Below, one piece after another: positions 8,437 to 30,320 of a stretch of DNA of 64,000 nucleotides. The stretch is from the NCBI RefSeq assembly GCF_011045215.1, contig NZ_CP049201.1; one strand, written 5' to 3'. Every line of letters starts with the position of its first letter. Position 1 is the first letter of the stretch. Both the position numbers and the translations under genes were made by a program. The notes beneath the pieces were generated by a model that searched no databases, was not told the origin of the DNA, and worked only from the letters and a program-made list of their open reading frames with translations. This stretch comes from Escherichia coli (GTDB taxonomy: Bacteria > Pseudomonadota > Gammaproteobacteria > Enterobacterales > Enterobacteriaceae).

Positions 8437-9512
8437 ACGACAATGTCACGCTACGGGTAAATGGCCGGGAGTGGAATGGCTGGACATCGGTGCGCATCGG
8501 TGCCGGTATTGAACGGCTGGCGCGGGATTTCAGTGTGGAGATCACCCGCCAGTGGCCGGGTGATGAGGGTATCACCACGCTTCAGCCGCGCATTAAAAAC
8601 GGTTCAAAAGTGGAGGTGCTGATTGGTGATGAGCTGGTGATCACCGGCTGGGTGGAGGCGACGCCCGTTCGTTACGATGCCCGTTCGGTCAGCACCGGTA
8701 TTGCCGGACGTAGTCTGACGGCTGACCTGATTGACTGTGCAGCCGAACCGACACAGTTTAACGGACGCTCGCTGGTGCAGATTGCGCAGGCGCTTGCTGC
8801 GCCTTTCGGCATTGAGGTGGTGAACAGCGGTGCGCCGTCGGGTGTTATTCCTGATGTTCAGCCTGATCACGGTGAAACGGTGATTGAGGTAATCAACAAA
8901 ATACTCGGTCAGCAGCAGGCACTGGCTTACGACGATCCGCACGGCAGGCTGGTGATTGGCGGTATTGGCTCAACGCGGGCACATACCGCGCTGGTACTTG
9001 GGGAAAACATCCTTTCCTGCGATACGGAGAAGAGTATCCGGGAGCGGTTTTCAGTTTACCAGGTGGCGGGGCAGCGTGCCGGAAACGACGATGATTTCGG
9101 TGAGGCCACCACCACCGCGCTGCGGGCCCGCACAGAGGACGCATTTATTGCCCGTTACCGTCCGATGTATATCAGGCAGACAGGGCAGGCCACGGGGGCT
9201 GGCTGTATTGCGCGTGCTGACTTTGAAGCCCGGCAACGGGCGGCGCGGACGGATGAAACCACCTATGTGGTGCAGGGCTGGCGACAGGGTAACGGTACGC
9301 TGTGGCAGCCCAACCAGCGGGTGATTGTCTTTGATCCGGTCTGTGGTTTTGACAATACCGAACTGCTTGTTTCGGAAGTCACGTTTACTCAGGACCAGAA
9401 CGGCACCCTGACGGAAATCCGTGTCGGCCCGCCTGATGCTTATCTGCCTGAACCCGATGCCCCCGGCGCGCAGAAAAAGAAAAAAGCCAGAGTACAGGAG
9501 GACCCGTTCTGA
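8433..9512 (+). CDS. baseplate hub / tail protein (Mu P/gp44-like, P2 gpD-like)
   Basis: 359 aa; overlapping-start gene chain within the baseplate module. Confidence 0.7.
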   Translation: MNDNVTLRVNGREWNGWTSVRIGAGIERLARDFSVEITRQWPGDEGITTLQPRIKNGSKVEVLIGDELVITGWVEATPVRYDARSVSTGIAGRSLTADLIDCAAEPTQFNGRSLVQIAQALAAPFGIEVVNSGAPSGVIPDVQPDHGETVIEVINKILGQQQALAYDDPHGRLVIGGIGSTRAHTALVLGENILSCDTEKSIRERFSVYQVAGQRAGNDDDFGEATTTALRARTEDAFIARYRPMYIRQTGQATGAGCIARADFEARQRAARTDETTYVVQGWRQGNGTLWQPNQRVIVFDPVCGFDNTELLVSEVTFTQDQNGTLTEIRVGPPDAYLPEPDAPGAQKKKKARVQEDPF

Positions 9513-10060
9513 TGAGGACGATTGAAGCCATGCAGCGACAACTTCTCGGCCTGATTGGGCGGGCAGTGGTGAAAAGTATCAGCGCCGCCACGAAATGTCA
9601 GACCGTGGATGTGTCCCTGATTGCCGGTGAACCCAAAGCCGGGGTTGAACATCTTGAACCCTACGGTTTTACCGCAAGGGCAAACAGCGGTGCGGAAGCG
9701 GTGGTGTTGTTTCCGGATGGCGACCGTTCTCATGCGGTGGTTGTTACGGTGTCGGACCGGCGCTACCGCCTGAAAGGGCTGCAGACGGGTGAGGTGGCTG
9801 TCTATGACGATCAGGGGCAGTCTGTGACGCTGACCCGGGAGGGGATCGTGGTGGACGGTGCAGGTAAAACGATCACGTTTCGCAATGCGCCCAGAGCACG
9901 TTTTGAAATGGACCTTGAAGTGACCGGACAGGTGAAAGACCTGTGCGACTCCGGCGGCACTACCATGTCAGCGATGCGGCTTGCCTATAACGGGCATCGT
10001 CACAGAGAGAACGGTCAGGGCAGTAACACCGACAAACCTGATAAAGCGATGGAGGCATGA
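9512..10060 (+). CDS. baseplate assembly protein V (spike, Mu gp45-like)
   Basis: 182 aa; position between the hub and gp46-like genes. Confidence 0.7.
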   Translation: MRTIEAMQRQLLGLIGRAVVKSISAATKCQTVDVSLIAGEPKAGVEHLEPYGFTARANSGAEAVVLFPDGDRSHAVVVTVSDRRYRLKGLQTGEVAVYDDQGQSVTLTREGIVVDGAGKTITFRNAPRARFEMDLEVTGQVKDLCDSGGTTMSAMRLAYNGHRHRENGQGSNTDKPDKAMEA

Positions 10061-10485
10061 TGGAACTGTGGCTGACGGTGAACGGTAAACGCACCTGCGC
10101 CAGCGCACCGCTGGATCCGCTGACCCGCGCCGTGGTGATTTCCATGTTTACCTGGCGGCGGGCGGAGCCTGATGACAACGCCGACGTCCCGATGGGATGG
10201 TGGGGGGATACCTGGCCTGCGGTACAGAATGACCGTTACGGCTCCCGACTGTGGCTGCTTCAGCGCAGCAAACTGACCAATCAGCTGGTGCAGACGGTAA
10301 GGGGGTATATCCGCGAATGCCTGCAATGGATGATTGATGACGGCGTGGTGTCCCGTATTGATCTGGATATCCGCCGCACCGGGATTAATGAGCTGGGTAA
10401 CAGTATCACCCTCTGGCGTCGTGACGGACCGATAATGATTTCTTTTGATGATCTGTGGAGTGCGATAACGCATGGCGGACAGTGA
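10057..10485 (+). CDS. phage GP46 family baseplate protein
   Basis: 142 aa; baseplate module position. Confidence 0.7.
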   Translation: MMELWLTVNGKRTCASAPLDPLTRAVVISMFTWRRAEPDDNADVPMGWWGDTWPAVQNDRYGSRLWLLQRSKLTNQLVQTVRGYIRECLQWMIDDGVVSRIDLDIRRTGINELGNSITLWRRDGPIMISFDDLWSAITHGGQ

Positions 10486-11530
10486 ATTTCAGCGCCCGAC
10501 GCTGGCAGAAAATATCAGTATGCTCCGTAACGATTTATTCGCCAGGCTGGACGTCAGCGACACGCTCCGGCGCATGGATGAAGACGTGCGGGCAAAGGTG
10601 TATGCGGCGGCGCTGCATACGGTTTACGGTTACATCGATTATCTGGCAATGAACATGCTGCCTGACCTGTGCGATGAGTCCTGGCTGGCGCGACATGCTG
10701 CGATGAAACGGTGTCCGCGCAAGGGGGCCACGGCTGCCAGCGGGTATATGCGCTGGGAAGGTGTCAGCGATGGCCTGAAGGTGACCGCCGGGAGCGTGAT
10801 TCAGCGCGCTGACCTGGTTCAGTACACGGCAACTGCTGATGCAACCAGCTCCGGTGGTGTCCTGCGCGTGCCGATCACTTGCTCAAGTGCAGGCGCGGTC
10901 GGTAACGCTGACGACGGTACGGCATTAATCCTGGTCACGCCGGTGAATGGTCTGCCGTCTTCCGGTGTTGCAGATACCCTGACTGGCGGATTCGATACTG
11001 AAGATCTGGAAACGTGGCGCGCCCGCGTCATTGAGCGGTATTACTGGACGCCTCAGGGCGGGGCTGACGGGGACTATGTCGTCTGGGCTAAAGAAGTGCC
11101 CGGCATTACCCGCGCATGGACATACCGTCACTGGATGGGAACGGGAACTGTCGGTGTGATGATTGCCAGCAGTGACCTGATTAATCCCATTCCGGAAGAA
11201 TCAACGGAAACGGCGGCAAGACAACATATCGGGCCACTGGCCCCGGTGGCAGGCTCTGATTTGTATGTGTTCAGGCCGGTGGCACATACGGTGGATTTTC
11301 ATATCCGCGTGACGCCGGACACACCGGAAATACGGGCTGCCATCACCGCGGAGTTGCGTTCGTTCCTGCTGCGTGATGGTTATCCGCAGGGAGAACTGAA
11401 GGTATCGCGTATCAGTGAGGCGATTTCCGGTGCGAACGGGGAATACAGCCATCAGTTGCTTGCACCGGCAGACAATATCTCCATTGCAAAAAATGAACTG
11501 GCGGTTCTGGGGACGATTTCATGGACGTGA
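10472..11530 (+). CDS. baseplate J-like protein (Mu gp47 / e14 JayE-like)
   Basis: 352 aa; size and sequence character of the baseplate J family. Confidence 0.85.
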
Positions 11531-12105
11531 CAAACGATGATTACATCCGTCTGTTGTCGGCACTGTTGCCCCCCGGTCCGGCGTGGTCAGCCAGCGATCC
11601 GGCGATTGCCGGTGCGGCACCGTCATTAACCCGTGTTCATCAGCGTGCGGATGCCCTGATGCGGGAGCTGGATCCGCGCACAACCACCGAACTGATAAAC
11701 CGCTGGGAGCGTCTGTGCGGCCTGCCGGATGAATGTATTCCGGCAGGGACGCAGACCCTTCGCCAGCGTCAGCAACGGCTGGATGCGAAGGTTAATCTGG
11801 CGGGCGGCATCAATGAGGATTTTTACCTTGCACAGCTTGCTGCCCTGGGCAGACCAGACGCCACCATCACGCGATACGACAAAAGCACGTTCACCTGCTC
11901 ATCTGCCTGTACTGACGCGGTGAATGCGCCGGAATGGCGGTATTACTGGCAGGTCAACATGCCAGCCGCCACCAACACCACCTGGATGACATGTGGCGAT
12001 CCCTGTGATTCCGCACTGCGTATCTGGGGCGACACCGTAGTCGAGTGTGTGCTTAACAAACTCTGCCCGTCGCATACCTACGTAATTTTTAAATATCCGG
12101 AGTAA
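11521..12105 (+). CDS. YmfQ-like tail protein (DUF2313, Mu gp48-like)
   Basis: 194 aa with a Cys-rich C-terminus; position directly upstream of the tail fibre gene, as in e14. Confidence 0.75.
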
Positions 12106-12108
12106 TCC

Positions 12109-12642
12109 ATGCATCGTATAGACACGAAAACCGCGCAGAAGGATAAGTTCGGCGCGGGTAAGAACGGTTTTACCCGTGGTAACCCCCAGACCGGCACACC
12201 TGCCACCGATCTGGATGATGACTACTTTGACATGTTGCAGGAGGAGCTTTGCAGCGTGGTGGAGGCATCCGGTACCAGCCTGGAGAAGGGGAGGCATGAC
12301 CAGTTGCTTACCGCACTTCGCGCGCTGCTGTTAAGCCGCAAGAATCCGTTTGGCGATATCAAATCGGACGGCACGGTGAAAACGGCTCTCGAAAACCTTG
12401 GTTTGGGAGAAGCGGCAAAACGGGATGTGGGGACAGGGGAAAATCAGATACCGGACATGGCCTCTTTTGCCAGTGGTGATGGATGGATGAAATTACCCAA
12501 CGGGAAAATCCTGCAATATGGTCGTGGTGCGGTTACGCCGACATTATCGACGCAAACAATGAGAATTACATTCAGCATCCCTTTTCCTAAAAAGTGGACT
12601 GCGCCATGCTTACTCATTCTGGTGATGGTGGTGCGCCTTTAG
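12109..12642 (+). CDS. tail fibre protein: constant N-terminal part fused to the currently selected short variable C-terminal part
   Basis: 177 aa; contains the left crossover site encoding ...ENLGLGE...; the variable part may carry a frameshift near 12585-12600 (alternative frame reads ...[26 protein letters not shown]). Confidence 0.7.
12386..12411. repeat. left crossover site of the Pin-type invertible segment
   Basis: CTCTCGAAAACCTTGGTTTGGGAGAA: fits the Gin/Hin/Pin site form (TTNTCNNAAACC-NN-GGTTT...); inverted copy of the site at 14288-14313 (17/18 identical in the shared half). Confidence 0.7.
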
Positions 12643-12791
12643 GTGCTGGGCGGGGATTCGTGATGACCGCAGAAGGCCCAACATTAACCTGTTTTTAATT
12701 CCGCTTACAGAACTGCATCAACCAGTTCCACAGTATCGATGAATTACAGTTGGTGGGCTGTTGGTGAGTAATTTTATTCAGGGTGATTTAT

Positions 12792-13235
12792 ATGAACGAA
12801 TATGTTTATAGCGCAAGGAATAATGCTTTTTCCCTGTGGATATGATTGATAAATATAAATCAGAGGGATGGGATTTATCAGATGCAAAGGAGGTGAATCA
12901 AAATATTATCAGTGAGTTTATGGCTGAACCGCCACAAGGAAAAATCCGTATTGCCGGAGATGATGGGATGCCTGCGTGGGCAGATATTCCTCCACCCACG
13001 CATGAAGAGCTTATTGAAATTACTGAATCAGAAAGACAGCTACTAATTAACCGGGCCAACGAATACATGAACAGTAAATCTGTGGCCCGGTAAAGCCGCT
13101 ATTGGTCGTCTGAAAGATGATGAACTGGCGCAATATAATTTGTGGCTGGATTATCTGGACGCACTGGAGCTGATCGATACTTCCGGTGCGCCAGATATTG
13201 AATGGCCTACGCCTCCGGCAGTTCAGGCCAGATGA
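12792..13235 (+). pseudogene. tail fibre assembly protein (Tfa) disrupted by two frameshifts
   Basis: N-terminus MNEYVYSARNNAFSLWI* (12792-12845), middle segment in ORF 12836-13093, C-terminus ...AAIGRLKDDELAQYNLWLDYLDALELIDTSGAPDIEWPTPPA in a third frame ending at 13233-13235. Confidence 0.55.
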
Positions 13236-13809
13236 CATCCGGCGCGGTGCTGGTATCTGTTGCCGTCACCGCGTCAATGTAATCCAGCACAGCGTTAAGG
13301 CGGGTTGTTTCTGCCTGCGTCAGATTCCGTCCGGCCTGTAATTTCAGTTGAATCAGACTGATGGAGGCCATTGCAGTATGAATCAGCGACTGGCGCAGTG
13401 CTTCTGCTGCATCTACTGCTGCGCCGTGCTGTGCCTCGGTATCTGTCACCCATTTCTCACCATTCCATTTATCGTATGGCGTTAACGGGGCGATAGTGGT
13501 TGTATTTTCAGGATAATCACCCGGAGCTGTGATTTTTTCGATTCTCCTGTTTCGGTGCTATAGACGATTTCACCACGATGATCTGGCACATATTCCCATG
13601 AATTTAAATCTACAGAGCGACAGATTGCATAACCAGCTTTATGTGTAATAAGCATCCAAACAAGAACATGCCGGGATACCGACGCCGACAGCGAGATATT
13701 CAGTTGATGTAGAAATATATTCACGCGTTTCACCATCATAATTATAAATGATAATGTCTCCCGCTTTTATGGCAATGAGTTCACTATTTAATACAGCTTT
13801 ATTCATCAT
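13207..13809 (-). pseudogene. second tail fibre assembly protein (Tfa') disrupted by two frameshifts
   Basis: Starts ATG at 13809 overlapping the fibre stop (ATGA); frame switches near 13640-13660 and inside the T6/A6 tract at 13533-13538; C-terminus ...RLNAVLDYIDAVTATDTSTAPDVIWPELPEA. Confidence 0.55.
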
Positions 13810-14313
13810 GCAGCCCTCACAATATAATTAAAGGCGATGTTACGTGGACGATTTTCATTTGCTGTTGGAACAACATTTGCCGCCGAGAAGTGAACATCTT
13901 GTCGGATTTTTCGGTCATTAGCGTATGTCATAGACACATTGATGTTATTCCGGACTGAGGTACCTCCGTAAAAGCCCCACTCACACTTTGAACATCGACA
14001 ATTGCATTAATTTCGCTGTTTACGCGCAACTGACCAAAACCGCCAGTAATGTTTCGAATAGCATCTCCTTGCGATGAAAGCAGAGTTCGCCCACTATCCA
14101 CACCACGTTCATCATCCCATCCACGAATAAATTCACCGCGTAAATCAGGCAATTTATTTGTCGGGTAAGCCTTTGCCAGTTCCGGGTATTCTTCAGCAGA
14201 AAAAGCCGCACCATTGCATTTCAGCCAGCCTGTTGGCGGAGTGGCTGAAGGCCACGGAACAGGCACCCCAACCCCACATGCTGAGCCTTCTCCCAAACCA
14301 ACGTTTATGAAAA
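13806..14313 (-). pseudogene. alternative tail-fibre variable C-terminal segment (promoterless; joins the constant part after inversion), frameshifted
   Basis: Begins in frame at the right crossover site (...FINVGLGE...); main frame stops at 13928-13930, while the conserved fibre terminus ...EWGFYGGTSVRNNINVSMTYANDRKIRQDVHFSAANVVPTANENRPRNIAFNYIVRAA lies in another frame ending at 13806-13808. Confidence 0.55.
14288..14313. repeat. right crossover site of the Pin-type invertible segment
   Basis: TTCTCCCAAACCAACGTTTATGAAAA; inverted relative to 12386-12411; 55 bp upstream of the invertase start. Confidence 0.7.
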
Positions 14314-14367
14314 TGCAGAAATAACGAGCAAATGGCATCATTCCTGCTTTTGTCAGGGAGATCTACC

Positions 14368-15850
<1,483 letters not shown>

Positions 15851-15930
15851 CTAACCCTTTGAATTTACATAGCGCAAAAAGATACCTTTCCTCATAATGT
15901 GAGCTAATTTTATGTTTCGTTTGATGATCG

Positions 15931-15993
15931 GGTCGGTCTCGAAAACCGGAGTAGGGGCAACTCTACCGGGGTTCAAATCCCCCTCTCTCGCCA
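15931..15993 (+). tRNA. partial tRNA-Ser 3' fragment (serU-like anticodon/T-arm/acceptor 3' strand; pseudo-tRNA, probable prophage att core)
   Basis: GGTCTCGAAAACCGGAGTAGGGGCAACTCTACCGGGGTTCAAATCCCCCTCTCTCGCCA matches the 3' two-thirds of tRNA-Ser as recalled; the 5' acceptor/D-arm is absent. Confidence 0.6.
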
Positions 15994-16571
15994 CTTTATC
16001 AATGACTTATCTCCCGACTTCCCGTCTTGCTTTTCCTAAACAGAACAATCGTAGAATATTCTTGAAGGGTTAGATCGTCACTGTTTTCTGTTCGATACTG
16101 TGACATTCAGCACTTGATTCGCTATGGATCTGACAGGAAGGTTTTGAGCGAAAATCTGCAGTTATTCAGTCGTTTTCTTATCGGTCACCATTATTCTTTT
16201 AGACATTGATCCTACAAAGCTGCCGCAAAGTTGGTGGTGGGAACTGAAGTTGCGTAGAGAAGGGGTCAATACCCGGAGGCAAACATGGGCTGGCAAAAGT
16301 GTAGCGGTATTAGGCGCAGCTATTTAGCCTAGTTATGTTTTATGAAAACTTGATATCATATAAGTGTCTTACTTATTGGCTGTAAATAAGTTTTTCTAAG
16401 GAATTGTTTCTTGAGTATCATTTGTAACTGTAACGGAATTTATAATCCTTTGCTTTATTGTTACGGTATTTTTATCACACCCTATTTTTAGTGGTTTTTA
16501 TACTGAAGTTTGGCAAAGTGAACTTTATATACATATACTTCATCCTGTTTCAGTTAAATTGGGTGGATGAT

Positions 16572-17315
16572 ATGGCAACTACATGTTCAGTTATATTGAT
16601 TTTGGAGTCCTTTGATGTTTATTTCGGAAAAGAGAGTGTGTTTCTGGAGAGAGGTTCATCTGTACTTGTCGACTCTAGCTCTAGAGATTTTTTCCTGACA
16701 TATCCTGAAAGAGTGATAGTGGCGGATTTTGGCGCTGAGTTTATTAGTCGCTATTTGAAAGCTAATAACTTAAGGGATATTTCTGATTGTAGGGAATATC
16801 CATCTTATTTAAAAATAAACTTTGCTGACTTCAGTTTAATTAAAGGATTAATTAGTTGGGCTAATCACTGTGCTGAATACATAGAAATTTTTGATGAGTC
16901 TATTGCTTTTACATGTCTCTCTGCATTTTCTTCTGAAAAACAATTTGGAGTATTTCTGTTTGGATGTTTGAAAAGCACAGGGGCTAAAGTTAAAACGATT
17001 ATTCATACGGATTTATCTGCACCATGGCGTCTTAAGGATATATCATCAAGATTATATCTCAGCGAAAGTTTACTAAAGAGGAAATTGAAAGAAGAGGGGG
17101 TATCATTCAGTAAGATCATACTTGATGAGAGGATGCAAATGGCTGAATATTTACTCAGCACTCGTTGTTATCCTATTAGTAAAGTAGCTAAGGTCTGTGG
17201 TTATGCCAGTGTCTCATACTTTACTTATGTATTTAGACGTTATTTTGGTGTTTCTCCAAGTCAATACTCTCAGAGGAGTTCAGAAAGTAAAATTCTTACT
17301 CACCAGGGAATCTGA
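16572..17315 (+). CDS. AraC-family transcriptional regulator (AppY/EnvY/Rns-like)
   Basis: C-terminal HTH ...ISKVAKVCGYASVSYFTYVFRRYFGVSPSQY; N-terminus MATTCSVILILESFD aligns with the AppY start MDYVCSVVFICQSFD; AT-rich gene; the first 38 codons of track ORF 16458 are rejected. Confidence 0.8.
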   Translation: MATTCSVILILESFDVYFGKESVFLERGSSVLVDSSSRDFFLTYPERVIVADFGAEFISRYLKANNLRDISDCREYPSYLKINFADFSLIKGLISWANHCAEYIEIFDESIAFTCLSAFSSEKQFGVFLFGCLKSTGAKVKTIIHTDLSAPWRLKDISSRLYLSESLLKRKLKEEGVSFSKIILDERMQMAEYLLSTRCYPISKVAKVCGYASVSYFTYVFRRYFGVSPSQYSQRSSESKILTHQGI

Positions 17316-17321
17316 TCATTG

Positions 17322-17790
17322 TTCTTGCCCCCTTATTTCCAGACAGGGGGTGTATCTTAAGTTAACGTTACCCGCTGACGTCGATATTCTCGCGGAGAGC
17401 GATAACCCAACGCACTGTGCGGATGGTTTTCATTGTAATGTTCGATCGCCACTGCAAGATTATGCAATGCCGTTCTTACATTCGGTTTCGGCATGAACGC
17501 GATGTAGTCTTCCTTCATCGTTTTCACGAACCTTTCTGCAATTCCATTACTCTGAGGACTGCTGATTGCCGTTGTGCAGGGCTCCAGATTCAACTCTCTG
17601 GCGAACTGCCGTGTTTCATGCGCTCTATACGCTGAACCGTTATCTGTCAGCCACTGGATGGACTGTTCCGGTACTTTATCGCCAAAGCGTTTTTCTATCG
17701 CTCCTAACATGACATCCTGCACTGTCGCTTTATCGTAACCTCCCGTGCTTGCGGCCCAGTCTATGGCTTCACGATCGCAACAGTCCAGGG
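17322..17790 (-). mobile_element. IS2 remnant (terminal inverted repeat plus 3' part of the transposase gene; truncated)
   Basis: TTGCCCCCTTATTTCCAGACA end sequence at about 17326-17350; ORF 17357-17722 encodes an IS3-family integrase-core C-terminus (...[17 protein letters not shown]...); only about 0.45 kb of a 1.3-kb element is present. Right boundary is approximate. Confidence 0.55.
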
Positions 17791-18069
17791 CGATTCATCT
17801 GGGCCAATCCTCGCTCATAACAGGCATTCACTTCAGTCATGGCAGAAAGGTATGCATGCTGGAGAAGTCGTGAAAGAAAAGAAGACTGCTGCGCCGTTTG
17901 TCGTCACGTTTATCTTCATTGGCTATGCAAGTCGTAATACAAGGTGGGACAAAACTGAGACACATAAGGCCTCGCAATGGCTTGCAAGGCTTTACATGTT
18001 TTGATGTGGTGGGACGTGTGAGCGCAGTGTTGATGGGGTAATGCTTTGAATTAGAAGCGGATTCTTATA

Positions 18070-18115
18070 ATTCGTAATGCGAAGGTCGTAGGTTCGACTC
18101 CTATTATCGGCACCA
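18070..18115 (+). tRNA. partial tRNA-Thr (thrW) 3' fragment (pseudo-tRNA / att core)
   Basis: ATTCGTAATGCGAAGGTCGTAGGTTCGACTCCTATTATCGGCACCA equals the 3' 46 nt of thrW as recalled; the 5' half is replaced by unrelated sequence. Confidence 0.7.
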
Positions 18116-18280
18116 TTTCAACGTCTTTTCCCGTCTATTAAAATCCAAAAAACCCGCATATACTCTAGCTTTGAGCGCCCCCGATAGTGTTTTAACGTCT
18201 ATCAATATCTCCTAAAATCCACGTCTTTTGGGGGTATATTCGGGGGTATATGCTGTGTGGGCTACTGGAGATACCCCCAA

Positions 18281-19471
18281 ATGAAACTAAATGCCCGTCA
18301 GGTCGATACGGCCAAACCGAAAGAAAAACCCTATAAACTGGCCGATGGTGGTGGGCTTTATCTGCTTGTTAATCCCAATGGTTCCCGGTACTGGCGTTTA
18401 AAGTACCGGGTAGCCGGAAAAGAAAAGCTGTTGGCGCTGGGGGTATATCCCGATGTAACCCTGGCTGATGCCAGGGCGAAACGAGATGAGGCCAAAAGGG
18501 GTATGGCTGGGGGGATCGACCCGAACGAAGCGAAGCGGGAAGAAAAATTGAACCGCGAAGCGCAAATCAAAAACACCTTCGAAGAAATCGCCAGAGAGTG
18601 GCATACAGAACGGCAGAAGAAATGGTCTGAGGGGTACGCCTCGGACATTCTGGAAGCATTCAGTAAAGACATATTCCCTTGGATTGGAAAACGCCCCATC
18701 ACGGAAATAAAGCCCCTTGATTTGCTGAATACGCTTAAACGCATCGAGAATAGGGGAGCGACTGAAAAGGCCCGTAAGGTTCGCCAGTGGTGCGGGGAGG
18801 TCTGGAAGTATGCGATCGTTACCGCCCGCGCAGAATATAACCCCGCCCCTGATCTATCTGTGGCTATGGAAGGACACGAAGGGGAGCACTTCCCCCATCT
18901 GGAAGCCGAAGAGTTACCCGAATTTTTCCAGACGCTGGCGACGGCAAAAAGTAACGTTCAGGTTATTTTGGGGCTGCGTCTGCTTATTCTTGTGGGGTTA
19001 CGTCCGGTTGAATTACGCGCGGCCCCGTGGTCAGAGATTGATTTTGATAATGCCTTGTGGGAGATCCCCAAAGAGCGAATGAAGAAAAGACGTCCGCACG
19101 TTGTCCCGCTTTCTCGCCAGGCTATGGTTATTCTCGGGCAATTAAAAGAGTTGTCGGGCCGCAATCCTTTCATTTTTCCGGGCCGGAACGACCCGCGAAA
19201 GCCAATGAGTGAAGGAGCAATTAATCAGCTAATAAAGCGACTCGGGTATAAGGGCAAAGCTTGCGGGCATGGTTTCCGACATACCATGAGCACAATTTTG
19301 TATGAGAAAGGGTATAACACCGAATGGATCGAAACCCAGCTTGCACATGTTGATAAAAATACCATCCGTGGCACATATAATCATGCCCGCTATCTGGATG
19401 GACGCCGGGAAATGCTTCAATGGTATGCCGACTATATGGAATCGCTGGCGAGTGGCAGGGTAAAAGATTAG
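18281..19471 (+). CDS. P4-type tyrosine integrase
   Basis: MKLNARQVDTAKPKEKPYKLADGGGLYLLVNPNGSRYWRLKYR... is the canonical P4/CP4 integrase N-terminus; C-terminal HxxR...Y catalytic region present; lies 165 bp after the thrW fragment. Confidence 0.9.
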   Translation: MKLNARQVDTAKPKEKPYKLADGGGLYLLVNPNGSRYWRLKYRVAGKEKLLALGVYPDVTLADARAKRDEAKRGMAGGIDPNEAKREEKLNREAQIKNTFEEIAREWHTERQKKWSEGYASDILEAFSKDIFPWIGKRPITEIKPLDLLNTLKRIENRGATEKARKVRQWCGEVWKYAIVTARAEYNPAPDLSVAMEGHEGEHFPHLEAEELPEFFQTLATAKSNVQVILGLRLLILVGLRPVELRAAPWSEIDFDNALWEIPKERMKKRRPHVVPLSRQAMVILGQLKELSGRNPFIFPGRNDPRKPMSEGAINQLIKRLGYKGKACGHGFRHTMSTILYEKGYNTEWIETQLAHVDKNTIRGTYNHARYLDGRREMLQWYADYMESLASGRVKD

Positions 19472-20459: not shown

Positions 20460-21332
20460 ATGAACATTACTGATATTATCAGCCATCGCGTATATCGTGA
20501 TGCGGATCTTGCTGTCATTAATAACACGGCATTTATTCAGCCTTATGACGGTTGTCACCGTGGGTTGTATGAAATGCGCGTTATTGAACTTTATCGCCTG
20601 AATAAAATGATGCACCTTACCCACGAATATAAATCTATTTCCGGGGAAAGCGTAGGCATTCCGGCGACTAAAGAGGAACTGTTTACACTGGTTAATAAAG
20701 GGCATGAACTTTGCCAGTCTGAACGGGAAAAGCTGGCGGCACTTGAAGCAGAATTGCAGCGTCTGCCAAGCCCGGCTGTAATTCCTGCGCCGCAGACGAT
20801 TAAAGAAGCACAGCAGGCCCGTAAATCACTAGAAGATGAAAGATACAGACTGCATCACGCAGCAATTAAAAATCAAGTCAAAGCACAGCAGGAAGAGTTA
20901 TCCATCAGACAAAACATTCTGGAATTGCTCGCGCCGGTTATTGATGTGTTGTTGGCCGTGGAAGATGTGGAACTGCTCGATCTGCGCCGTTCCCTGCCTA
21001 AGTCATCCCTCGATGCTAAGGCATTCAAAAAGGCGATTTCTGAAATTGAGTGTGCTGACCTTGCCTGGCAGAAAATGGATAAACTGGAGATTGCCCTTAA
21101 CAAGGTGGTGAACAACTGCACATATCGCCCGGAAGGAAGCATTAATCCCCGTTTTGTTAACCCTCTTAATGAAGATAAGCGGGAACGCGCCGAAATATCA
21201 CGCGATTATTACAGCTCTGAAATGGCCTTTATTCATACGGTGATGAGTGCAGATGAATATTTAAATTATATGTTGCCGATCCGTCACCAGCAGCGCGCGC
21301 AACGACTCACATTAGAAAGAAATATCAACTAA
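20460..21332 (+). CDS. hypothetical coiled-coil protein (possible capsid scaffold / size-determination factor)
   Basis: 290 aa with a long Gln/Glu/Leu-rich heptad-like central region; immediately upstream of, and on the same strand as, the capsid-like gene. Confidence 0.45.
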   Translation: MNITDIISHRVYRDADLAVINNTAFIQPYDGCHRGLYEMRVIELYRLNKMMHLTHEYKSISGESVGIPATKEELFTLVNKGHELCQSEREKLAALEAELQRLPSPAVIPAPQTIKEAQQARKSLEDERYRLHHAAIKNQVKAQQEELSIRQNILELLAPVIDVLLAVEDVELLDLRRSLPKSSLDAKAFKKAISEIECADLAWQKMDKLEIALNKVVNNCTYRPEGSINPRFVNPLNEDKRERAEISRDYYSSEMAFIHTVMSADEYLNYMLPIRHQQRAQRLTLERNIN

Positions 21333-21341
21333 GGAAGAATT

Positions 21342-22349
21342 ATGTCTTATGTAACACCAGATTATTTAACGCAGTATCACGAAAACCTGATTAAGTCTTT
21401 TAATATTAAATATAAAAACGAAGATACGGGGTATTTCACCATATCACAGCCGGAAAAAGCATCTCCGGATGCATGGGGATGTTCCACGCTTGATGTTAAA
21501 GGCTCGTCCTGGCTGATTGATAATATTTCATTACTGGACATTATCGGTGCGGATGGCACGACGATCACCATCGGTGATGGTTCCCTTTATACAGGCCGTG
21601 CAAAGGAAGGTCGCTTTCATAAGAAACTAAAAACCAACGGAACACCTTTTTTATTATCAGAAACGGATTCCTGCGCCTCATTGACTTATGAAGAAATGGC
21701 GGTAATGGCAAACGCGAAAAATTTCAGTAATGAAATGATCATTTTTTTCAAGAAGGCCGTGGTGCGGGATATGCTCCGTATTGGATTTAACGGCAAGATG
21801 ATTGCCGAAAATACCAACCCGGAACAATATAAAAACGGCGAAGATATCAATATTGGCTGGCACTCGCTGGCAAAAACATTCAATAACGGTTCACAAATTA
21901 TTTCTGATGCTTTCGCACTGGGGAAAGGCGGTGATTTTGCCGATGTTCACGATCTGGCTGATTGCCTCATCACGTCAAAAATCCCCGAAGGTCAGCGCGA
22001 AGATCCGGGCCTTGTGGTGATGGTTGGCGCGCAACTTGCCGCCCGCGAACGACTGAAACTGTTCAACATGGCCGATCAACCACTGACGCTGACGGCGGGG
22101 GATATGCTGACAAGCAGTGTCGCCGGTCGCTTTGCTTTTATCCCGCCGTTTATGCCGGGTAAGCGCCTGGCTGTTACGACGCTGAAAAATTTGCAGATCC
22201 TGACGCTGAAACACAGCCAACGCTACCGCGCGGAGGATATCCCGCAACGAGGTGTTTATGAGCATGGCTATTTACGTGAGGAAGGTTACGCGCTGGGGGA
22301 TGGCTATCTTTACGCGGCCAGCGATGAGAACGCCGTAACGCTGGTTTAA
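21342..22349 (+). CDS. P2 GpN-family major capsid protein homologue
   Basis: Segment LGKGGDFADVHDLADCLITSKIPEGQREDPGLVVMVGAQLAA parallels P2 gpN VGKGGDYASLDALVMDATNNLIEPWYQEDPDLVVIVGRQLLA (recalled from memory); FNGKM... also parallels gpN FNGVK... Confidence 0.6.
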   Translation: MSYVTPDYLTQYHENLIKSFNIKYKNEDTGYFTISQPEKASPDAWGCSTLDVKGSSWLIDNISLLDIIGADGTTITIGDGSLYTGRAKEGRFHKKLKTNGTPFLLSETDSCASLTYEEMAVMANAKNFSNEMIIFFKKAVVRDMLRIGFNGKMIAENTNPEQYKNGEDINIGWHSLAKTFNNGSQIISDAFALGKGGDFADVHDLADCLITSKIPEGQREDPGLVVMVGAQLAARERLKLFNMADQPLTLTAGDMLTSSVAGRFAFIPPFMPGKRLAVTTLKNLQILTLKHSQRYRAEDIPQRGVYEHGYLREEGYALGDGYLYAASDENAVTLV

Positions 22350-24643: not shown

Positions 24644-27376
24644 ATGCAAGGTAAAAAAGTTTCACAGACAGCAGGACGCGCGGCGGGCCAGTGGGAAAAT
24701 ATTCTTGAACACCTGGGGATTACTGTTCCTGCGGGTGGTCTTCATGGCCCCTGCCCGATCTGCGGCGGTAAAGATCGTTTTCGCTTTGATAATAAAAAAG
24801 GGCGTGGAACCTGGTTCTGCAACCAGTGCGGCCACGGTGACGGGCTGGATCTGGTCAAACTGGCGCTTTCGCTGGACACCGGGCCAGCCGCTGATCGAGT
24901 TGCTGAATTACTTCCGGCCCTTCCTCCGCCTGCGGTCATGCAGCCTGCCAGAAAAGAAGCCAGTGACGAAGGTCGCCCACATGACTACTGGCAACGCCTC
25001 TTTGCCCGTACTCAGCCGGGGGAAAGCCCTTACCTTACGGCGCGGGGGCTGACAGGTTTTGAACTGCCGCTGACCGTTCAGGAGATGAAAACCGCTGGCG
25101 GTGTTTTTCCGGCTGGTTCGCTTTTATTACCGATCACGGACACCGAAGGACGGATGACCGGTGCACAGCTTATCGGCCCGGACAAGGTAAAAGGCTTATG
25201 TGCTGGCACCAGGAAAAAAGGGCGTTTTATCTCTGTCGGGCCGTTCCCGGAGAAAATGCCCGCGCGGATCATTATCTCGGAAGGCTTTGCCACTGCGTTA
25301 AGCGCATCCCTGCTTTCAGAGGGCTGGAGTATTGCGGCGCTGGATAAAGGCAACCTGAAAGACGTTGCGGAGCAAATCCGCCAGAAATGGCCGGACGTGC
25401 AGATCGTTATTGCCGGTGATAATGACTTTTCTGACGGTAAACCCAATCAGGGGAAAGAGTCTGCGATCAAAGCTGCACTGGCCGTTAAGGGATGGATGAC
25501 CATTCCTCCCGGACGGATCAAAGTTGACTGGGATGATTACCGCCGTGAATTTGGCCTCCAGCGCGCCCGTGACGCATTCGCGGAAGAACTGCTTAACCCG
25601 GCAGACACCGAAACGCGTTTACCGCATGGTTTCCGCCTGACGAAGGATTATCTTTGGTTTGATCGCCCGCTCAGTGACGGTAGCGAAAGCGGCCAGACTC
25701 GCCAGGTGAAGATATGTAGCCCGCTCAAAGTGACGGCCATCACCAGCGACGGCGAAGGCGGTAAATTCGGGCGTCTGCTTGAGTGGGAAGACTCCAGCGG
25801 ATTACGGCATGAATGGGCGATGCCAATGACAGTGCTTGCCGGAAGCGGTCAGGAGCTGCGGGAGGTTCTGCTTGATAACGGAATGCACTTTATCAGCGTG
25901 AACGGCGCGGCGCGTAGCTATCTGATGGAATACATTTCTAACTGTCGCCCGGTTCGCCGCGTCACCTGCGTTGAAAAAACAGGCTGGTTTAGCGGTGCGT
26001 ATGTTCTCCAGGATGAGGTGATCGGCAGCGATGCCGGATCGGTCATCCTCCAGTCTGCTATGTCGTCTAAAAATGACTTCCGGGTGAGCGGAACGGTGGC
26101 GGAATGGGCGCAACACGTCGGGCGCTATTGTGCCGGAAATTCCCGCCTGGTGTTCTGCGTCAGTCTGGCGCTGGCCGCGCCGTTACTGAATATTATTGGT
26201 GTTGGCGGCGGCGGTTATCACCTTAAGGGCGAATCCACGGACGGCAAGACAACCACAATGAAGGTAGCGGCGTCTGTCTGCGGCGGGCCTGATTTCTGGA
26301 AAACGTGGCGGGCAACCGGAAACGCGCTGGAAGGTATTGCGCTACGCCGTAATGATGCCGCCCTGATGCTGGATGAAATCAGCGAAGTTGACGGCAGAGA
26401 GGCTAGCCGGATCGCCTATATGCTGGGGAACGGGCAGGGCAAAGCAAGGGGGCGCGTTGATGGCAGCGTCCGCGATCCGGTGACCTGGACATTGCTTTAC
26501 CTGTCCACCGGGGAAATCTCTATTGCGGAACATGCCGCCGAAGCCGGAGAAAAGCGAACCGGCGCGGGTGTCGGTGTGCGTATGGTGCAAATCCCCAGCG
26601 ATACCGGAAAACATGGCGCTTTCGAAAATCTCCACGGCATGGAAGGCGGTAAAGCGTTTGCGGAATACCTTGAACAGACCTGTAAACAATATTACGGCGC
26701 GCCGTTCCGCGAATGGTTGCGCTGGCTGGCGGCAAATCTGACGGAAACCGCGAACCGGGCGCGGGCAATGAAAAAAGAGTATGAACGGACATTATTACCC
26801 GAAGATTCCGGCAAGCAGGTTGGGCGCATTGTGGATCGCTTTGCACTGTTGGCCGTTGCGGGGGAACTGGCGAGTGAAGCGGGGATCACAGGCTGGCAAC
26901 CAGGAGAAGCGTATAACGCTGCAAGAAGCTGTCTGGCGGCATGGCTTAACGATCGTGGACATGCGGCCAACCAGGAAGAAGCCGACGCGCTGGAGAAGGT
27001 GCGGCGCTTTATTACGGCCAATCAGTACACACGCTTTGCTGACTGGTATGACGAGAAAAACCGCCCGTCAAATATGGTTGGCTTTCGCCGGGTGGAGAAA
27101 GGCGGGAACGGTATTGGCATGAGCAAAAAGGAGAACAGCGGCGATACTGTTAAAGACGGGGACGCCACTAAAGAGCCGGAAACCACATTTTATATCCTGC
27201 CCAGCGGATGGAAGGAAATTTGCGGGACGTCGGACAGCGTTAAAACGGCGAGACTATGCGACGAGGCTGGATGGCTTGTAAAGGATGAAGATCGCCAGCG
27301 CCTACAACGTACAGTAAGACTACCGGAAATTGGCTTAAAGAAAGTGTATGTGTTCAGCGGCGAAGTGATCGGATAA
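24644..27376 (+). CDS. P4 alpha-type DNA primase/helicase (zinc-binding, Toprim and P-loop helicase domains)
   Basis: CPICGGKDRFRF...WFCNQCGHGDG zinc motif; Toprim-like IISEGFATALSA...IAGDNDF; Walker-type region further downstream; true start ATG 24644 (the track ORF begins at a TTG). Confidence 0.9.
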   Translation: MQGKKVSQTAGRAAGQWENILEHLGITVPAGGLHGPCPICGGKDRFRFDNKKGRGTWFCNQCGHGDGLDLVKLALSLDTGPAADRVAELLPALPPPAVMQPARKEASDEGRPHDYWQRLFARTQPGESPYLTARGLTGFELPLTVQEMKTAGGVFPAGSLLLPITDTEGRMTGAQLIGPDKVKGLCAGTRKKGRFISVGPFPEKMPARIIISEGFATALSASLLSEGWSIAALDKGNLKDVAEQIRQKWPDVQIVIAGDNDFSDGKPNQGKESAIKAALAVKGWMTIPPGRIKVDWDDYRREFGLQRARDAFAEELLNPADTETRLPHGFRLTKDYLWFDRPLSDGSESGQTRQVKICSPLKVTAITSDGEGGKFGRLLEWEDSSGLRHEWAMPMTVLAGSGQELREVLLDNGMHFISVNGAARSYLMEYISNCRPVRRVTCVEKTGWFSGAYVLQDEVIGSDAGSVILQSAMSSKNDFRVSGTVAEWAQHVGRYCAGNSRLVFCVSLALAAPLLNIIGVGGGGYHLKGESTDGKTTTMKVAASVCGGPDFWKTWRATGNALEGIALRRNDAALMLDEISEVDGREASRIAYMLGNGQGKARGRVDGSVRDPVTWTLLYLSTGEISIAEHAAEAGEKRTGAGVGVRMVQIPSDTGKHGAFENLHGMEGGKAFAEYLEQTCKQYYGAPFREWLRWLAANLTETANRARAMKKEYERTLLPEDSGKQVGRIVDRFALLAVAGELASEAGITGWQPGEAYNAARSCLAAWLNDRGHAANQEEADALEKVRRFITANQYTRFADWYDEKNRPSNMVGFRRVEKGGNGIGMSKKENSGDTVKDGDATKEPETTFYILPSGWKEICGTSDSVKTARLCDEAGWLVKDEDRQRLQRTVRLPEIGLKKVYVFSGEVIG

Positions 27377-27419: not shown

Positions 27420-27700
27420 GGCCCTGGAAACATAGCCAGCCAGGAAGAAGTGATCGCACGTATCATATTTTTTAGTGGAAACAGTGGGAACATAGGGAAC
27501 AGACTTGATTTATAAAGGTTTTATTTGTTCCCAATTACTGTTCCCATATGGTAACAGGTGGTAATGTATTTTAAATCATATGGTTATGTTGATATGCAAA
27601 GCGTTGTTCCCAGTTGTAAAAGAGAGATGGGAACAGGAAAAAGGTATAAATATCAACACTGTTACCATTGTTCCCACTGTTTCCACCATTTTTGACAATA
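27420..27700. repeat. iteron cluster (GGGAACA / TGTTCCC heptamers), putative replication origin or cis replication region
   Basis: At least 7 exact copies in both orientations plus variants (GGAAACA, TGTTACC, TGTTTCC) within about 280 bp directly after the primase gene; resembles P4 ori/crr TGTTCACC iterons. Confidence 0.55.
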
Positions 27701-27724: not shown

Positions 27725-27741
27725 GCTTTTCCCTGGCTGGC
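27725..27741. repeat. 17-bp direct repeat, left copy (GCTTTTCCCTGGCTGGC)
   Basis: Exact copy of 30005-30021; lies 20 bp upstream of the P2-like integrase start. Confidence 0.5.
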
Positions 27742-27760: not shown

Positions 27761-28726
27761 ATGAGCATTAAGAAACGTCCTGATGGAAAATGGCTGGTAG
27801 ATATGCGGCCCGCAGGTCGTAAAGGAAAACGTATTCGCAGGGTTTTTAACAGGAAATCGGAGGCCCTGGCATTTGAGATGTATTACCTGGTCCGTTCTCA
27901 ATCGCCGGAATGGGCAACGAACTTCACAGACCGCAGATTATTAAGCGATTTGCGTAAAACATGGTGGGACCTGTTTGGACACGCCAGAAATAACGCAGAA
28001 ACTGAAAAGCGCCAGCTTGATAAAACCATCCGGCAGATGGGAGATCCACCAGTTAACCGGCTTACAATCCGCTTCATTCTGGAATTCAGAGCAGGCCGTG
28101 TTTCAGGGAAATTAAAGGCATCCACGATAAATCGCGATATGTACCGGTTATCAGGCATGTTTACCGAATTAATTAAAGCAGGTGAGTGTAAAAATAATCC
28201 GTTCCGTAGTCTTGAACCGTTAAAGGAAGAACCTTCCGCAGTAACGTTTCTGACCCACGAAGAAATTAGCATGTTACTGGAAAAACTGGAGGGAGATTCG
28301 CGTAAGCTGGCGTTACTGTGTCTTAATACTGGGGCGCGTTTCAGTGAAGCCGCGAATCTAACGGCTGAAATGGTTAACAACCGTCGTGTAACGTTTATTA
28401 AGACAAAGAACGGGAAGCAGCGGACAATACCCATTTCATCTGAACTCGAAAAGGAAATAAAAACAAAAAATTCAGGTCAACTTTTCACGGTGGATTATAA
28501 ATGGTTTTCCCGCAGGTTGAAGGCAATCAAACCGGATTTACCGGATGGACAGGCAACGCATGTATTACGACATACTTTCGCCAGTCATTTCATTATGAAT
28601 GGGGGAAATATTGTTGTATTAAAAGAGATTCTTGGACATGCCAATATTCAGCAAACTATGATTTATGCACACTTTGCGCCTGAATTTCTGGCGCAGGCTG
28701 TAACATTGAATCCATTTAGTAAGTAA
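27761..28726 (+). CDS. P2-like tyrosine integrase
   Basis: MSIKKRPDGKWLVDMRPAGRKGKRIRRVFNRKSEALAFE... parallels P2 Int MAIKKLDDGRYEVDIRPTGRNGKRIRRKFDKKSEAVAFE (from memory); C-terminal HxLRHTFASHF...Y region present. Confidence 0.85.
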   Translation: MSIKKRPDGKWLVDMRPAGRKGKRIRRVFNRKSEALAFEMYYLVRSQSPEWATNFTDRRLLSDLRKTWWDLFGHARNNAETEKRQLDKTIRQMGDPPVNRLTIRFILEFRAGRVSGKLKASTINRDMYRLSGMFTELIKAGECKNNPFRSLEPLKEEPSAVTFLTHEEISMLLEKLEGDSRKLALLCLNTGARFSEAANLTAEMVNNRRVTFIKTKNGKQRTIPISSELEKEIKTKNSGQLFTVDYKWFSRRLKAIKPDLPDGQATHVLRHTFASHFIMNGGNIVVLKEILGHANIQQTMIYAHFAPEFLAQAVTLNPFSK

Positions 28727-28754: not shown

Positions 28755-29012
28755 CTAACGTTGAAGTAATTCTTTCATGACCGTTTTTTGTTCCGGCGTC
28801 ATCATGTCAATCATTGTTTTTACTGCTTTATCCCCAGTCAGAGCGCTGGGGCTTAGCGTATGGGAGAACGTCATATTCATAACGAAGGTATGCCCACATT
28901 CAACATTATTACAGGCACAATACATATCAGACAGGTGGGGATGCTTGCGCACTGTCTTTTTTGTTGTTGAATTACTTCCACACTCAGGACAAACAATTTT
29001 ATGGCTGCGCAT
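28755..29012 (-). CDS. Ogr/Delta-family zinc-finger transcriptional activator
   Basis: CPECGSNSTTKKTVRKHPHLSDMYCACNNVECGHTF: a CxxC...CxxxxC zinc finger typical of P2 Ogr / P4 Delta; convergent with the integrase, 28 bp apart. Confidence 0.8.
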   Translation of the reverse strand: MRSHKIVCPECGSNSTTKKTVRKHPHLSDMYCACNNVECGHTFVMNMTFSHTLSPSALTGDKAVKTMIDMMTPEQKTVMKELLQR

Positions 29013-29430
29013 AATAATCACCACTCGTAAAAGGCGCATTATTATACCACTATTTGCATTAAACAAAAAAAAGAAATTGATATAAATTATCAATAATATC
29101 ATCGTGTTATGTCATTCCATTCTTTCTTTGCTTTTAACTTAGTGTCACGCAATTTGATTTTTTTTGTTTTAATTTTCATATGGTTACGTTATTTTGATTA
29201 AAGATTGAATTTTACGATGACTGTAATTATTGAAATCCTTTTCAACTGATTGCATTTTTTTCAGTCTCAAATTTCATGTAAAACCCCGTTTAACGCCTGT
29301 TCTGGCGCTTCTTTCCTGCAATTTTCCAAACTGAAAAAATTCTCACTACGTAAACACCGTGGGCGTGCGGGTGAGCGCGGTTTTGGTCCCGCTGGCGTTT
29401 GCGTCGTAACAAGTCAGAAACATACAACCA

Positions 29431-29452
29431 CATGTACAACTAGCTGTACATA
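29431..29452. promoter_or_regulatory. putative YefM-type operator (paired TGTACA hexamers)
   Basis: caTGTACAactagcTGTACAta lies 45 bp upstream of the antitoxin start. Confidence 0.45.
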
Positions 29453-29495
29453 TGCAATACTTACGACGTAATAACTTGGCGGACGGAAAAACACT

Positions 29496-29741
29496 ATGCA
29501 ACACGTAAACTATACCGATGCTCGACAGCATTTAGCTGACCTGATGCAGCAGGCTAATGATGATCGTGCGCCAATCCTGGTTACGCGTAAGGGTGCTAAA
29601 AGCGTAGTAATGATCGATGCGGAAGAGTTCGCATCGATTCAGGAAACGTTACACCTGTTCAGTAACCCGGCGAACGCCGCACACATTGAAGCCAGCCTTG
29701 CATCGCTCGAACGCGGCGATTATGAGGAACTGGACATTTAA
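29496..29741 (+). CDS. type II antitoxin, Phd/YefM family
   Basis: 81 aa; ...RAPILVTRKGAKSVVMIDAEEFASIQETLHLFSNPANAAHI... matches the YefM pattern; 1-nt overlap with the toxin gene. Confidence 0.85.
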   Translation: MQHVNYTDARQHLADLMQQANDDRAPILVTRKGAKSVVMIDAEEFASIQETLHLFSNPANAAHIEASLASLERGDYEELDI

Positions 29742-30001
29742 TGAAAGTCAGGATATCCCCGCAGGCAAAAGGCGATCTTCAGTACTGGGCTGAGAATGAC
29801 CCAAAGACGTATAACAAGGTAATGGAGCTAATCAAATCGGCTAAGGAAAGCCCCTTCAAGGGGATAGGGAAGCCGGAGGCGCTAAAGCATCGTAAGCCGC
29901 TTTGGTCACGTCGAATCACGAAAGAACATCGCCTGGTGTATTACGTTGAGCAAGGCGATCTGTACATTGTTGCGTGTCGCTATCACTACACCACGATTTA
30001 A
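29741..30001 (+). CDS. type II toxin, YoeB/Txe family mRNA interferase
   Basis: 86 aa; ...GIGKPEALKHRKPLWSRRITKEHRLVYYVEQGDLYIVACRYHY is the conserved YoeB C-terminus. Confidence 0.85.
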   Translation: MKVRISPQAKGDLQYWAENDPKTYNKVMELIKSAKESPFKGIGKPEALKHRKPLWSRRITKEHRLVYYVEQGDLYIVACRYHYTTI

Positions 30002-30004
30002 ACA

Positions 30005-30021
30005 GCTTTTCCCTGGCTGGC
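30005..30021. repeat. 17-bp direct repeat, right copy (GCTTTTCCCTGGCTGGC)
   Basis: Exact copy of 27725-27741; begins 4 bp after the yoeB-like stop. Confidence 0.5.
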
Positions 30022-30320
30022 GGGTTTACCTTAACTTTGCCAGCACTGTTTAAACGCCCGCCGCTCTCTCCCAAATACAGTATAAAAAGCAATCAATTAT
30101 TGTGGACGTAAAAGCGCATGGGGGTACAATTGGGGGTACGTTGGTTATCCATTATGTAATAAATTCATAATAAACATGGTGTTATATTGCATGTTTAACT
30201 CTTATTATCTACCCCATATTCAAATACACCACGTTTCCTCCTGTGCCGTATTTATGCCATTGTAACCCTGGCAATTAATCAAAATACTGTTCTGACATCA
30301 GGCAATGCAGGTGCAGACAT

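Follow-up and report, generated by a model that had tools for sequence, protein, structure and literature searches.

The window analysed here, a 64,000-nt stretch of DNA, is part of an Escherichia coli chromosome; from position 30210 onward, the right flank (LysR, SDR, ykgR) shares 98% identity with many E. coli genomes. [quoted passage not shown] The TAA stop codon of the antitoxin (29739-41) and the ATG start codon of the toxin (29741-43) have one base in common, giving TAATG at 29739-29743 within the junction sequence ATTTAATGAAAG, and this is the 1-nt overlap that a preliminary description of the locus had claimed. The antitoxin matches the Pfam model PF02604 (PhdYeFM_antitox) end to end (79 bits, cutoff 29.8) and passes the NCBIfam Phd subfamily model TIGR01552 (47.9 bits, cutoff 20.8), while the toxin scores 99.9 bits against PF06769 (YoeB_toxin; cutoff 27) and 94 bits against TIGR02116, the NCBIfam Txe/YoeB equivalog (cutoff 51.8). 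The top solved structures are E. coli YefM for the antitoxin (2a6q_A, E 5e-15) and E. coli YoeB for the toxin (2a6q_E, E 6.5e-23), followed for both proteins by the S. aureus, M. tuberculosis (RelJK) and other YefM-YoeB complexes. These Pfam, NCBIfam and structural matches establish for both proteins the complete YefM-YoeB-type pair that had been proposed. The pair already carries RefSeq annotation (WP_052932205.1 and WP_112886714.1), and we found no mention of either accession in the literature; as one more automatically annotated paralogue of a well-known kind, it adds little in itself.

Table 1. Coordinates, in the window, of the toxin-antitoxin cassette and of the landmarks of its carrier.
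Feature	Position	Strand	Evidence or remark
attL: copy of the 3' 46 nt of tRNA-Thr (thrW)	18070..18115	+	exact match to the tRNA-Thr of L011
P4-type integrase, adjoining attL	18281..19471	+	RefSeq annotation of near-identical loci; 100% tblastn match in L034
Primase-helicase, P4 alpha-like	24701..27376	+	Pfam zinc ribbon, Toprim, DUF927
Second small tyrosine recombinase (int2), variable gene	27761..28726	+	Pfam Int_N and Phage_integrase; phrog_1
Ogr/Delta-like zinc-finger activator, neighbour of the cassette	28755..29012	-	PF04606; phrog_603; RefSeq, homologous locus
Operator: two TGTACA hexamers	29433-29438 and 29445-29450		12 bp centre to centre
Putative extended -10 (TGcAATACT)	29453..29461	+	conservation only
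Antitoxin gene, Phd/YefM family	29496..29741	+	81 aa; PF02604; identical to WP_052932205.1
Toxin gene, Txe/YoeB family	29741..30001	+	86 aa; PF06769, TIGR02116
Stem-loop right after the toxin stop	29997..30054	+	-18.9 kcal/mol, z -2.65
Degenerate attR remnant TCTTATTATC	30200..30216	+	~21 nt missing relative to L001 and L011

Among the closest known systems, YefM-YoeB of E. coli K-12 (b2017/b4539; PDB 2A6Q; sequences verified against the MG1655 record) belongs to the same Pfam families and has the same antitoxin-toxin order, equivalent catalytic residues, the DNA-binding residues Arg10 and Arg31 that are also present in the pair described here, and a matching operator core of two TGTACA boxes placed 12 bp apart on the 5' side of the antitoxin. 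The two systems differ, however, in sequence (52% identity between the toxins and 41% between the antitoxins), in the α2-β2 loop of the toxin, which is one residue shorter in our pair, in the three-residue C-terminal tail of the toxin (TTI), in the overlap between the genes (1 nt, TAATG, against 4 nt, GTGA, in K-12) and in location, since our pair sits at thrW and the K-12 locus next to the his operon (hisL). The preliminary description had regarded the pair as a paralogue rather than the chromosomal yefM-yoeB, and this view is borne out by the low identities, by the thrW location away from hisL and by the score of the antitoxin against the NCBIfam K-12 YefM equivalog NF008499, which at 69.9 bits falls short of the cutoff of 121 and places the pair outside orthology with the K-12 locus. 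Closer relatives of the toxin are found in a subclade of 86-residue YoeB proteins (Kosakonia, Ewingella, Scandinavium and a Rahnella plasmid) that share its length, its shortened loop and a T-x-(I/L) tail at 57-65% identity, and that have a TGTACA-type pair upstream when one mismatch is allowed. Unlike our pair, these members of the subclade are not carried by satellites and are either stand-alone chromosomal systems in non-mobile surroundings, as in Kosakonia and Ewingella, or plasmid-borne, the others being located on the Rahnella plasmid and on plasmid-like or phage-plasmid-like contigs.

In the structure of YoeB on the ribosome, Glu46 and His83 act as general base and general acid, respectively, Arg65 and Tyr84 stabilize the transition state, and Arg59 and Glu63 contact the mRNA (PMC3814384). 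An alignment of 12 toxin sequences, comprising K-12 YoeB and relatives at 53-95% identity, shows that all six catalytic and mRNA-contact residues are invariant, with K-12 Glu46, Arg59, Glu63, Arg65, His83 and Tyr84 corresponding to Glu46, Arg58, Glu62, Arg64, His82 and Tyr83 of our toxin (the numbers are shifted by one after Glu46 because of the one-residue deletion in the loop). The C-terminal catalytic residues, whose loss would have contradicted the preliminary description by its own account, are thus kept: His82 and Tyr83 are both present and are followed by the tail of three residues, which is a trait common to the 86-residue Enterobacterales subclade and not a defect. [quoted passage not shown] Four E. 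coli copies, among them those of the window, JNEC-KY203 and Eco_24-2013, encode exactly the same two proteins. Compared with two Salmonella copies, the antitoxin gene shows 0-1 nonsynonymous against 4-6 synonymous changes (dN/dS 0-0.04) and the toxin gene 4 against 11-15 (dN/dS 0.06-0.09). Both genes are under purifying selection, with dN/dS below 0.1 relative to Salmonella, and these low ratios, together with the identity of the proteins across E. coli, argue against a decaying remnant.

We next consider the control region. The yefM-yoeB operator defined by Kedzierska et al. consists of two palindromes with a TGTACA core, 12 bp apart from centre to centre, and such pairs occur no more than 80 bp from the start of yefM in many genomes (PMC1802561). 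The hexamers of our cassette, 63 and 51 nt 5' of the antitoxin ATG, fall within this 80-bp limit and have the same spacing, and the composite pattern TGTACA-N6-TGTACA is found at this one place in the 64 kb, where dinucleotide-preserving shuffles predict 0.01 occurrences; the YefM-type hexamer pair reported earlier is therefore genuine in spacing and distance and unique in the window. A single TGTACA is not enriched (5 found, 11 expected), so that the non-random feature is the pairing of the hexamers and not the hexamer itself. Both are enclosed in a near-perfect 26-bp palindrome at 29429-29454, which in the Salmonella operator becomes a perfect one (CATATGTACAACTAGTTGTACATATG), and diverged copies of the cassette (Salmonella and others) keep the hexamer pair while their 5' untranslated region and far-upstream sequence vary freely. 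All diverged copies also keep the motif TGn(C/A)AT(A/G)(C/A)T, located 2 nt 3' of the second hexamer and present in the variants TGcAATACT, TGaCATACT and TGaCATAAT. From this pattern we infer that TGcAATACT is an extended -10 element and that the first TGTACA (29433-38) doubles as a -35 element with four of six matches, at a spacer of 17 bp; a simple consensus scan with a threshold of 9 of 12 matches called no sigma-70 promoter over the operator.

In such an arrangement, a repressor seated on the paired hexamers would block the -35 element and the spacer of the cassette's own promoter. The geometry differs in K-12, where the operator covers the -10 element (the long repeat overlaps it, according to PMC4803016), is composed of one long and one short repeat instead of a symmetric 26-bp palindrome, and lies at -33/-21 instead of -63/-51, that is, 30 nt closer to the ATG. 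As a naturally occurring variant of the YefM operator, ours could serve in tests of how geometry sets the level of repression. At the other end of the cassette, the stem-loop that follows the toxin stop may act as a terminator, though no T-run lies behind it, and it marks the end of the sequence common to the Salmonella satellites. Further upstream, a block of 44 nt at 29349-29392 is invariant, and an exact-pattern scan of viral contigs with this block retrieved nothing but a further copy of this satellite. Rfam models had no match anywhere in the satellite.

Judged by its gene content and flanking repeats, the carrier of the pair is a whole phage satellite of P4-like type that has inserted at thrW, a tRNA gene. 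Its genes, called from Pfam, PHROG and the RefSeq annotation of homologous loci, encode in order a P4-type integrase, an AlpA-like regulator, a 290-residue protein of unknown function, a P2-family major capsid protein, an Icd-like protein, a derepression (epsilon-like) protein and the primase, followed by seven TGTTCCC iterons 3' of the primase gene that recall the crr repeats of P4, a second small integrase (int2), an Ogr/Delta activator on the minus strand and finally the toxin-antitoxin pair. The element thus contains the P4-like set of integrase, AlpA, epsilon-like protein, alpha-type primase and delta/Ogr between att repeats. The open reading frame of the Ogr/Delta-like gene, when delimited mechanically, extends to 29102. 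Neither psu nor sid is annotated in the near-identical satellite loci, and both are present in a neighbouring type of satellite (L002). A search for the P2/P4 cos site found no copy of the P4 cos 19-mer at up to three mismatches, a blast of the P4 ends gave no homology, and the intergenic region between ogr and yefM, blasted against phages, had no match. In Eco_24-2013, the same element comes immediately after an intact tRNA-Thr gene, after proBA. Since another prophage lies further to the left, the window itself has no complete tRNA gene. The copy in the window may be locked in place and no longer excise, given that its attR is truncated by about 21 nt.

The satellite is not confined to E. 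coli. Copies in Salmonella have a body that is 85-89% identical and adjoin an omptin gene; they carry a different integrase and also end with ogr-YefM-YoeB. The succession of int, AlpA, capsid, derepression protein, primase, ogr, YefM and YoeB is the same at thrW in E. coli and at another site in Salmonella. Homology to one of the Salmonella copies (L003) ends at 30044 and E. coli core sequence restarts at 30210, which places the pair at the end of the island, as had been stated. The family assignment, gene order, overlap, operator type, island-end position and paralogue status given in the preliminary description are therefore all supported. The adjacent integrase module, for which it had suggested an addiction or stabilisation role of the pair, is on the other hand not the unit with which the pair travels: one Salmonella locus (L005) has lost int2 and E. 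coli JNEC-KY203 (L001) has an altered copy, yet the pair persists in both, and the working integrase of the satellite lies at the end opposite to the pair. A nested mini-element formed by int2, ogr and the toxin-antitoxin genes and bounded by a 17-nt repeat (27725 and 30005) was also considered and not adopted: int2 is missing from L005 although ogr and the pair are retained there, the upstream repeat is absent from L011 in spite of its int2, and in L002 a single copy of the repeat lies behind delta.

Among 5426 complete E. coli genomes, the pair occurs in three, the same number in which a 12-kb query retrieves the whole satellite, and every one of these satellites contains the pair; the K-12-type yefM-yoeB next to hisL, by comparison, is present in 4218 (78%). 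Toxins at 93-94% identity are also found on contigs that are not satellites. On one of them, a plasmid-like contig (L035) in which the pair comes after PsiA, a Zeta toxin, a methylase fragment and YjaZ, the DNA is 85% identical to the window from 29430, 3 nt before the first hexamer, to 30097. This occurrence outside satellites shows that the cassette moves on its own, and the limits of the match define the mobile unit, which is made up of the operator, the promoter, the two genes and a short tail of about 100 nt past the stop codon. The unit has approximately the same span as the segment originally marked in the preliminary description (29431-30001). The YoeB family as a whole is common on plasmids, with 800 matching plasmid records. 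No plasmid or phage matched the locus in a megablast search, and tblastn retrieved plasmid homologues at no more than 58% identity and eight phage records, all below 47%. The locus is a clean natural example of a complete toxin-antitoxin cassette (~620 bp) moving among a satellite, a plasmid-like element and other backgrounds.

Within the satellite, the pair fills the end slot, after ogr/delta and before attR. This slot is a variable cargo site rich in genes of the toxin-antitoxin and defence type, as its content in other elements shows. The classical P4-like satellite at thrW in E. coli GPT24-02, which has a primase, a sid-like gene, psu and delta, ends with genes for a DprA-like protein and a phosphoribosyltransferase that match the ShosA and ShosT models; ShosTA is among the hotspot cargo of P4-like and P2-like elements whose defence function has been validated, and the cargo of P4's own hotspot, gop-beta-cII, is toxin-antitoxin-like and defends against lambda and P1 (Rousset et al. 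2022, PMC9122126). Among capsid-primase-ogr relatives, whose loci were fetched via the primase, the genes that follow ogr code for a HEPN_LA2681 protein and an unknown protein in Proteus terrae (L018), for a DUF3800 protein (the PADLOC candidate PDC-M04A) and a HipA-like kinase with an HTH partner in Proteus vulgaris (L019), and for small unknown proteins in Intestinirhabdus alba (L014). All 20 primase-related loci from other species lack YefM-YoeB. The cargo of P4-like hotspots (gop-beta-cII, ShosTA/DprA-PRTase and PARIS, among others; Rousset et al. 2022) occupies the same end slot after the late-gene activator, but our satellite differs from the elements that carry it in being without psu and sid, in having a P2-family capsid gene and in that no cos was located.

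Taken at the level of its sequence, the cassette is complete, selected and competent for autoregulation. On balance, we think it probable that it is an autorepressed addiction cassette built on a ribosome-dependent mRNase and selected to penalize loss of the element that carries it. By analogy with characterized members of the family, a dimer of the antitoxin would bind and neutralize the toxin and, with the toxin as co-repressor, would occupy both TGTACA sites and switch the operon off. Should synthesis stop, either because the element is lost or because host transcription is shut off, the labile antitoxin would be degraded and the freed toxin would cleave mRNA in the ribosomal A site, with Glu46 acting as the general base and His82 as the general acid, and would thereby arrest translation. 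Addiction of this kind would favour retention of the satellite in either its integrated or its plasmid state. We favour this role because the cassette is constant in the satellite lineage, because it enters plasmid-like backbones as a selfish unit and because the family includes plasmid pairs such as Axe-Txe. [quoted passage not shown] Several observations weigh against this reading. The antitoxin falls below the K-12 YefM equivalog cutoff, the operator is set farther from the ATG than in K-12 and would cover other promoter elements, and the simple consensus scan called no promoter at this place. The truncation of attR, if excision has indeed been lost, may have removed the current selection for it in the window's copy, and the presence of defence genes, validated or candidate, in the same slot of related satellites points to another role.

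The same machinery could have been selected for anti-phage defence or for competition between mobile elements, as the payload of a satellite hotspot, and we regard this as a serious rival account of its main role, though a less probable one. A phage that shuts off host transcription would deplete the antitoxin and free the mRNase, and the infection would be aborted before progeny are made. The position of the pair suits such a payload as well as it suits addiction, lying by attR in the slot that in another thrW satellite holds ShosTA, in Proteus relatives the HEPN_LA2681 protein or the DUF3800 and HipA-like genes, and in P4 the phage-directed gop-beta-cII; the lack of YefM-YoeB from all of the primase-related loci of other species implies that the slot turns over. 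Set against this, our search of the literature found no published case of anti-phage defence by YefM-YoeB, neither protein matches a PADLOC model, and neither YoeB nor YefM was found in the accessible part of the hotspot tables of PMC9122126. Within its own lineage, moreover, the pair is constant, being present in the three complete E. coli genomes and in all of the Salmonella loci, and on the plasmid-like contig the same cassette lies beside PsiA and a Zeta toxin, in surroundings where maintenance genes are typically found. A more specific version, which we put forward with greater reserve and consider doubtful, is that the satellite represents a hitherto undescribed branch of the P4-like group, without psu and sid and with a P2-family capsid gene of its own, and that the pair is its payload for abortive infection, the antitoxin perhaps cross-talking with the resident yefM-yoeB. 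If this is true, no YefM-YoeB pair before it would have been shown to defend a cell. The locus offers a test case of whether classical mRNase toxin-antitoxin pairs in the cargo slots of satellites are defence or addiction modules. The addiction and anti-phage roles are in any case compatible and not mutually exclusive.

It is also conceivable, though we judge it very improbable, that the antitoxin mainly acts in trans on the chromosomal yefM-yoeB, or the reverse, as an anti-addiction or cross-regulating partner. Cross-talk with the resident system is possible because the two operators have the same TGTACA-N6-TGTACA core; YefM and Axe each recognize the operator of the other with similar specificity (PMC7730913), and the prevalence of the K-12-type locus among complete E. 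coli genomes implies that two pairs probably often coexist in one cell. The satellite and K-12 antitoxins are, however, just 41% identical, and cross-talk of this sort would supplement an autonomous toxin-antitoxin function and not replace it. Slightly less probable still is that the pair is a decaying or silent remnant in an immobilized satellite: the shortened attR, the variable or truncated int2 of relatives and the lack of a canonical sigma-70 promoter call would agree with decay, but both reading frames are intact, the proteins do not vary across the four E. coli copies, synonymous changes far outnumber nonsynonymous ones relative to Salmonella in both genes, and the catalytic and DNA-binding residues are all kept, as are the operator and the putative -10 element.

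The satellite integrated at thrW carries its own gene for a major capsid protein of the P2 family (PF05125, phrog_70), preceded by a gene for a 290-aa protein that found no match in either Pfam or PHROG. Because classical P4 takes its capsid protein from the helper, whereas this element encodes one itself, it may represent a distinct branch among the P4-like satellites. Relatives were found in Salmonella, Intestinirhabdus, Citrobacter and Proteus, and neither sid nor psu is annotated in the loci that are near-identical to it.

Features of the satellite and its ends
Feature	Window position	Description
attL	18070-18115	46-nt 3' fragment of tRNA-Thr (thrW)
Tandem TGGGGGTAnAnTnGGGGGTA motifs	18229-18248; 30119-30138	just within each satellite end
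Capsid gene and preceding gene	20460-22349	P2-family major capsid protein (PF05125, phrog_70); 290-aa protein
Seven iterons	27486-27675	TGTTCCC/GGGAACA, both orientations, directly 3' of the primase gene
17-nt repeat GCTTTTCCCTGGCTGGC	27725-27741; 30005-30021	flanks the block of second recombinase, ogr and toxin-antitoxin genes on both sides
44-nt block CGTAAACACCGTGGGCGTGCGGGTGAGCGCGGTTTTGGTCCCGC	29349-29392	identical in E. coli and Salmonella copies
attR	30200-30216	~21 nt shorter than in two other E. coli copies

Several candidate cis-acting sites accompany these genes. The iterons resemble the type-1 repeats of P4 crr/ori (TGTTCACC) and probably form the cis-region for satellite replication. 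The tandem motifs at the two ends probably serve as arm-type binding sites for the P4-type integrase; in the Salmonella copies, where the integrase is different, CGGGTA-type repeats take their place. No whole tRNA gene lies within the 64-kb window, and therefore at least two elements must be arranged in tandem at thrW. Since attR of this copy lacks ~21 nt, excision of the satellite may no longer be possible.

Upstream of the toxin-antitoxin operator, the 44-nt block stays unchanged between E. coli and Salmonella while the sequence flanking it diverges. It contains a weak terminator-like hairpin, and a similar GGCGTGCGGGG motif is located between delta and the cargo in the ShosTA-bearing satellite of E. 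coli GPT24-02. The block may act either as a terminator or in packaging, as a cos site. The same GPT24-02 satellite has a single copy of the 17-nt repeat, positioned after delta, and the downstream copy in the window belongs to a hairpin 3' of the toxin stop codon. The operator itself varies among cassettes: in several copies, including that of E. coli Eco_24-2013 (12940-12960 of its locus) and the upstream regions of L035, a plasmid-like contig, and of a further cassette copy, L036, the second hexamer reads TGTACG instead of TGTACA, a natural one-base variant that could change repression.

To the left of the satellite (window about 9500-17800) lies a portion of another prophage, with baseplate, tail-fibre and tail-fibre-assembly genes. 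The near-identical locus of E. coli JNEC-KY203 additionally holds a DUF262 (GmrSD-like) gene.
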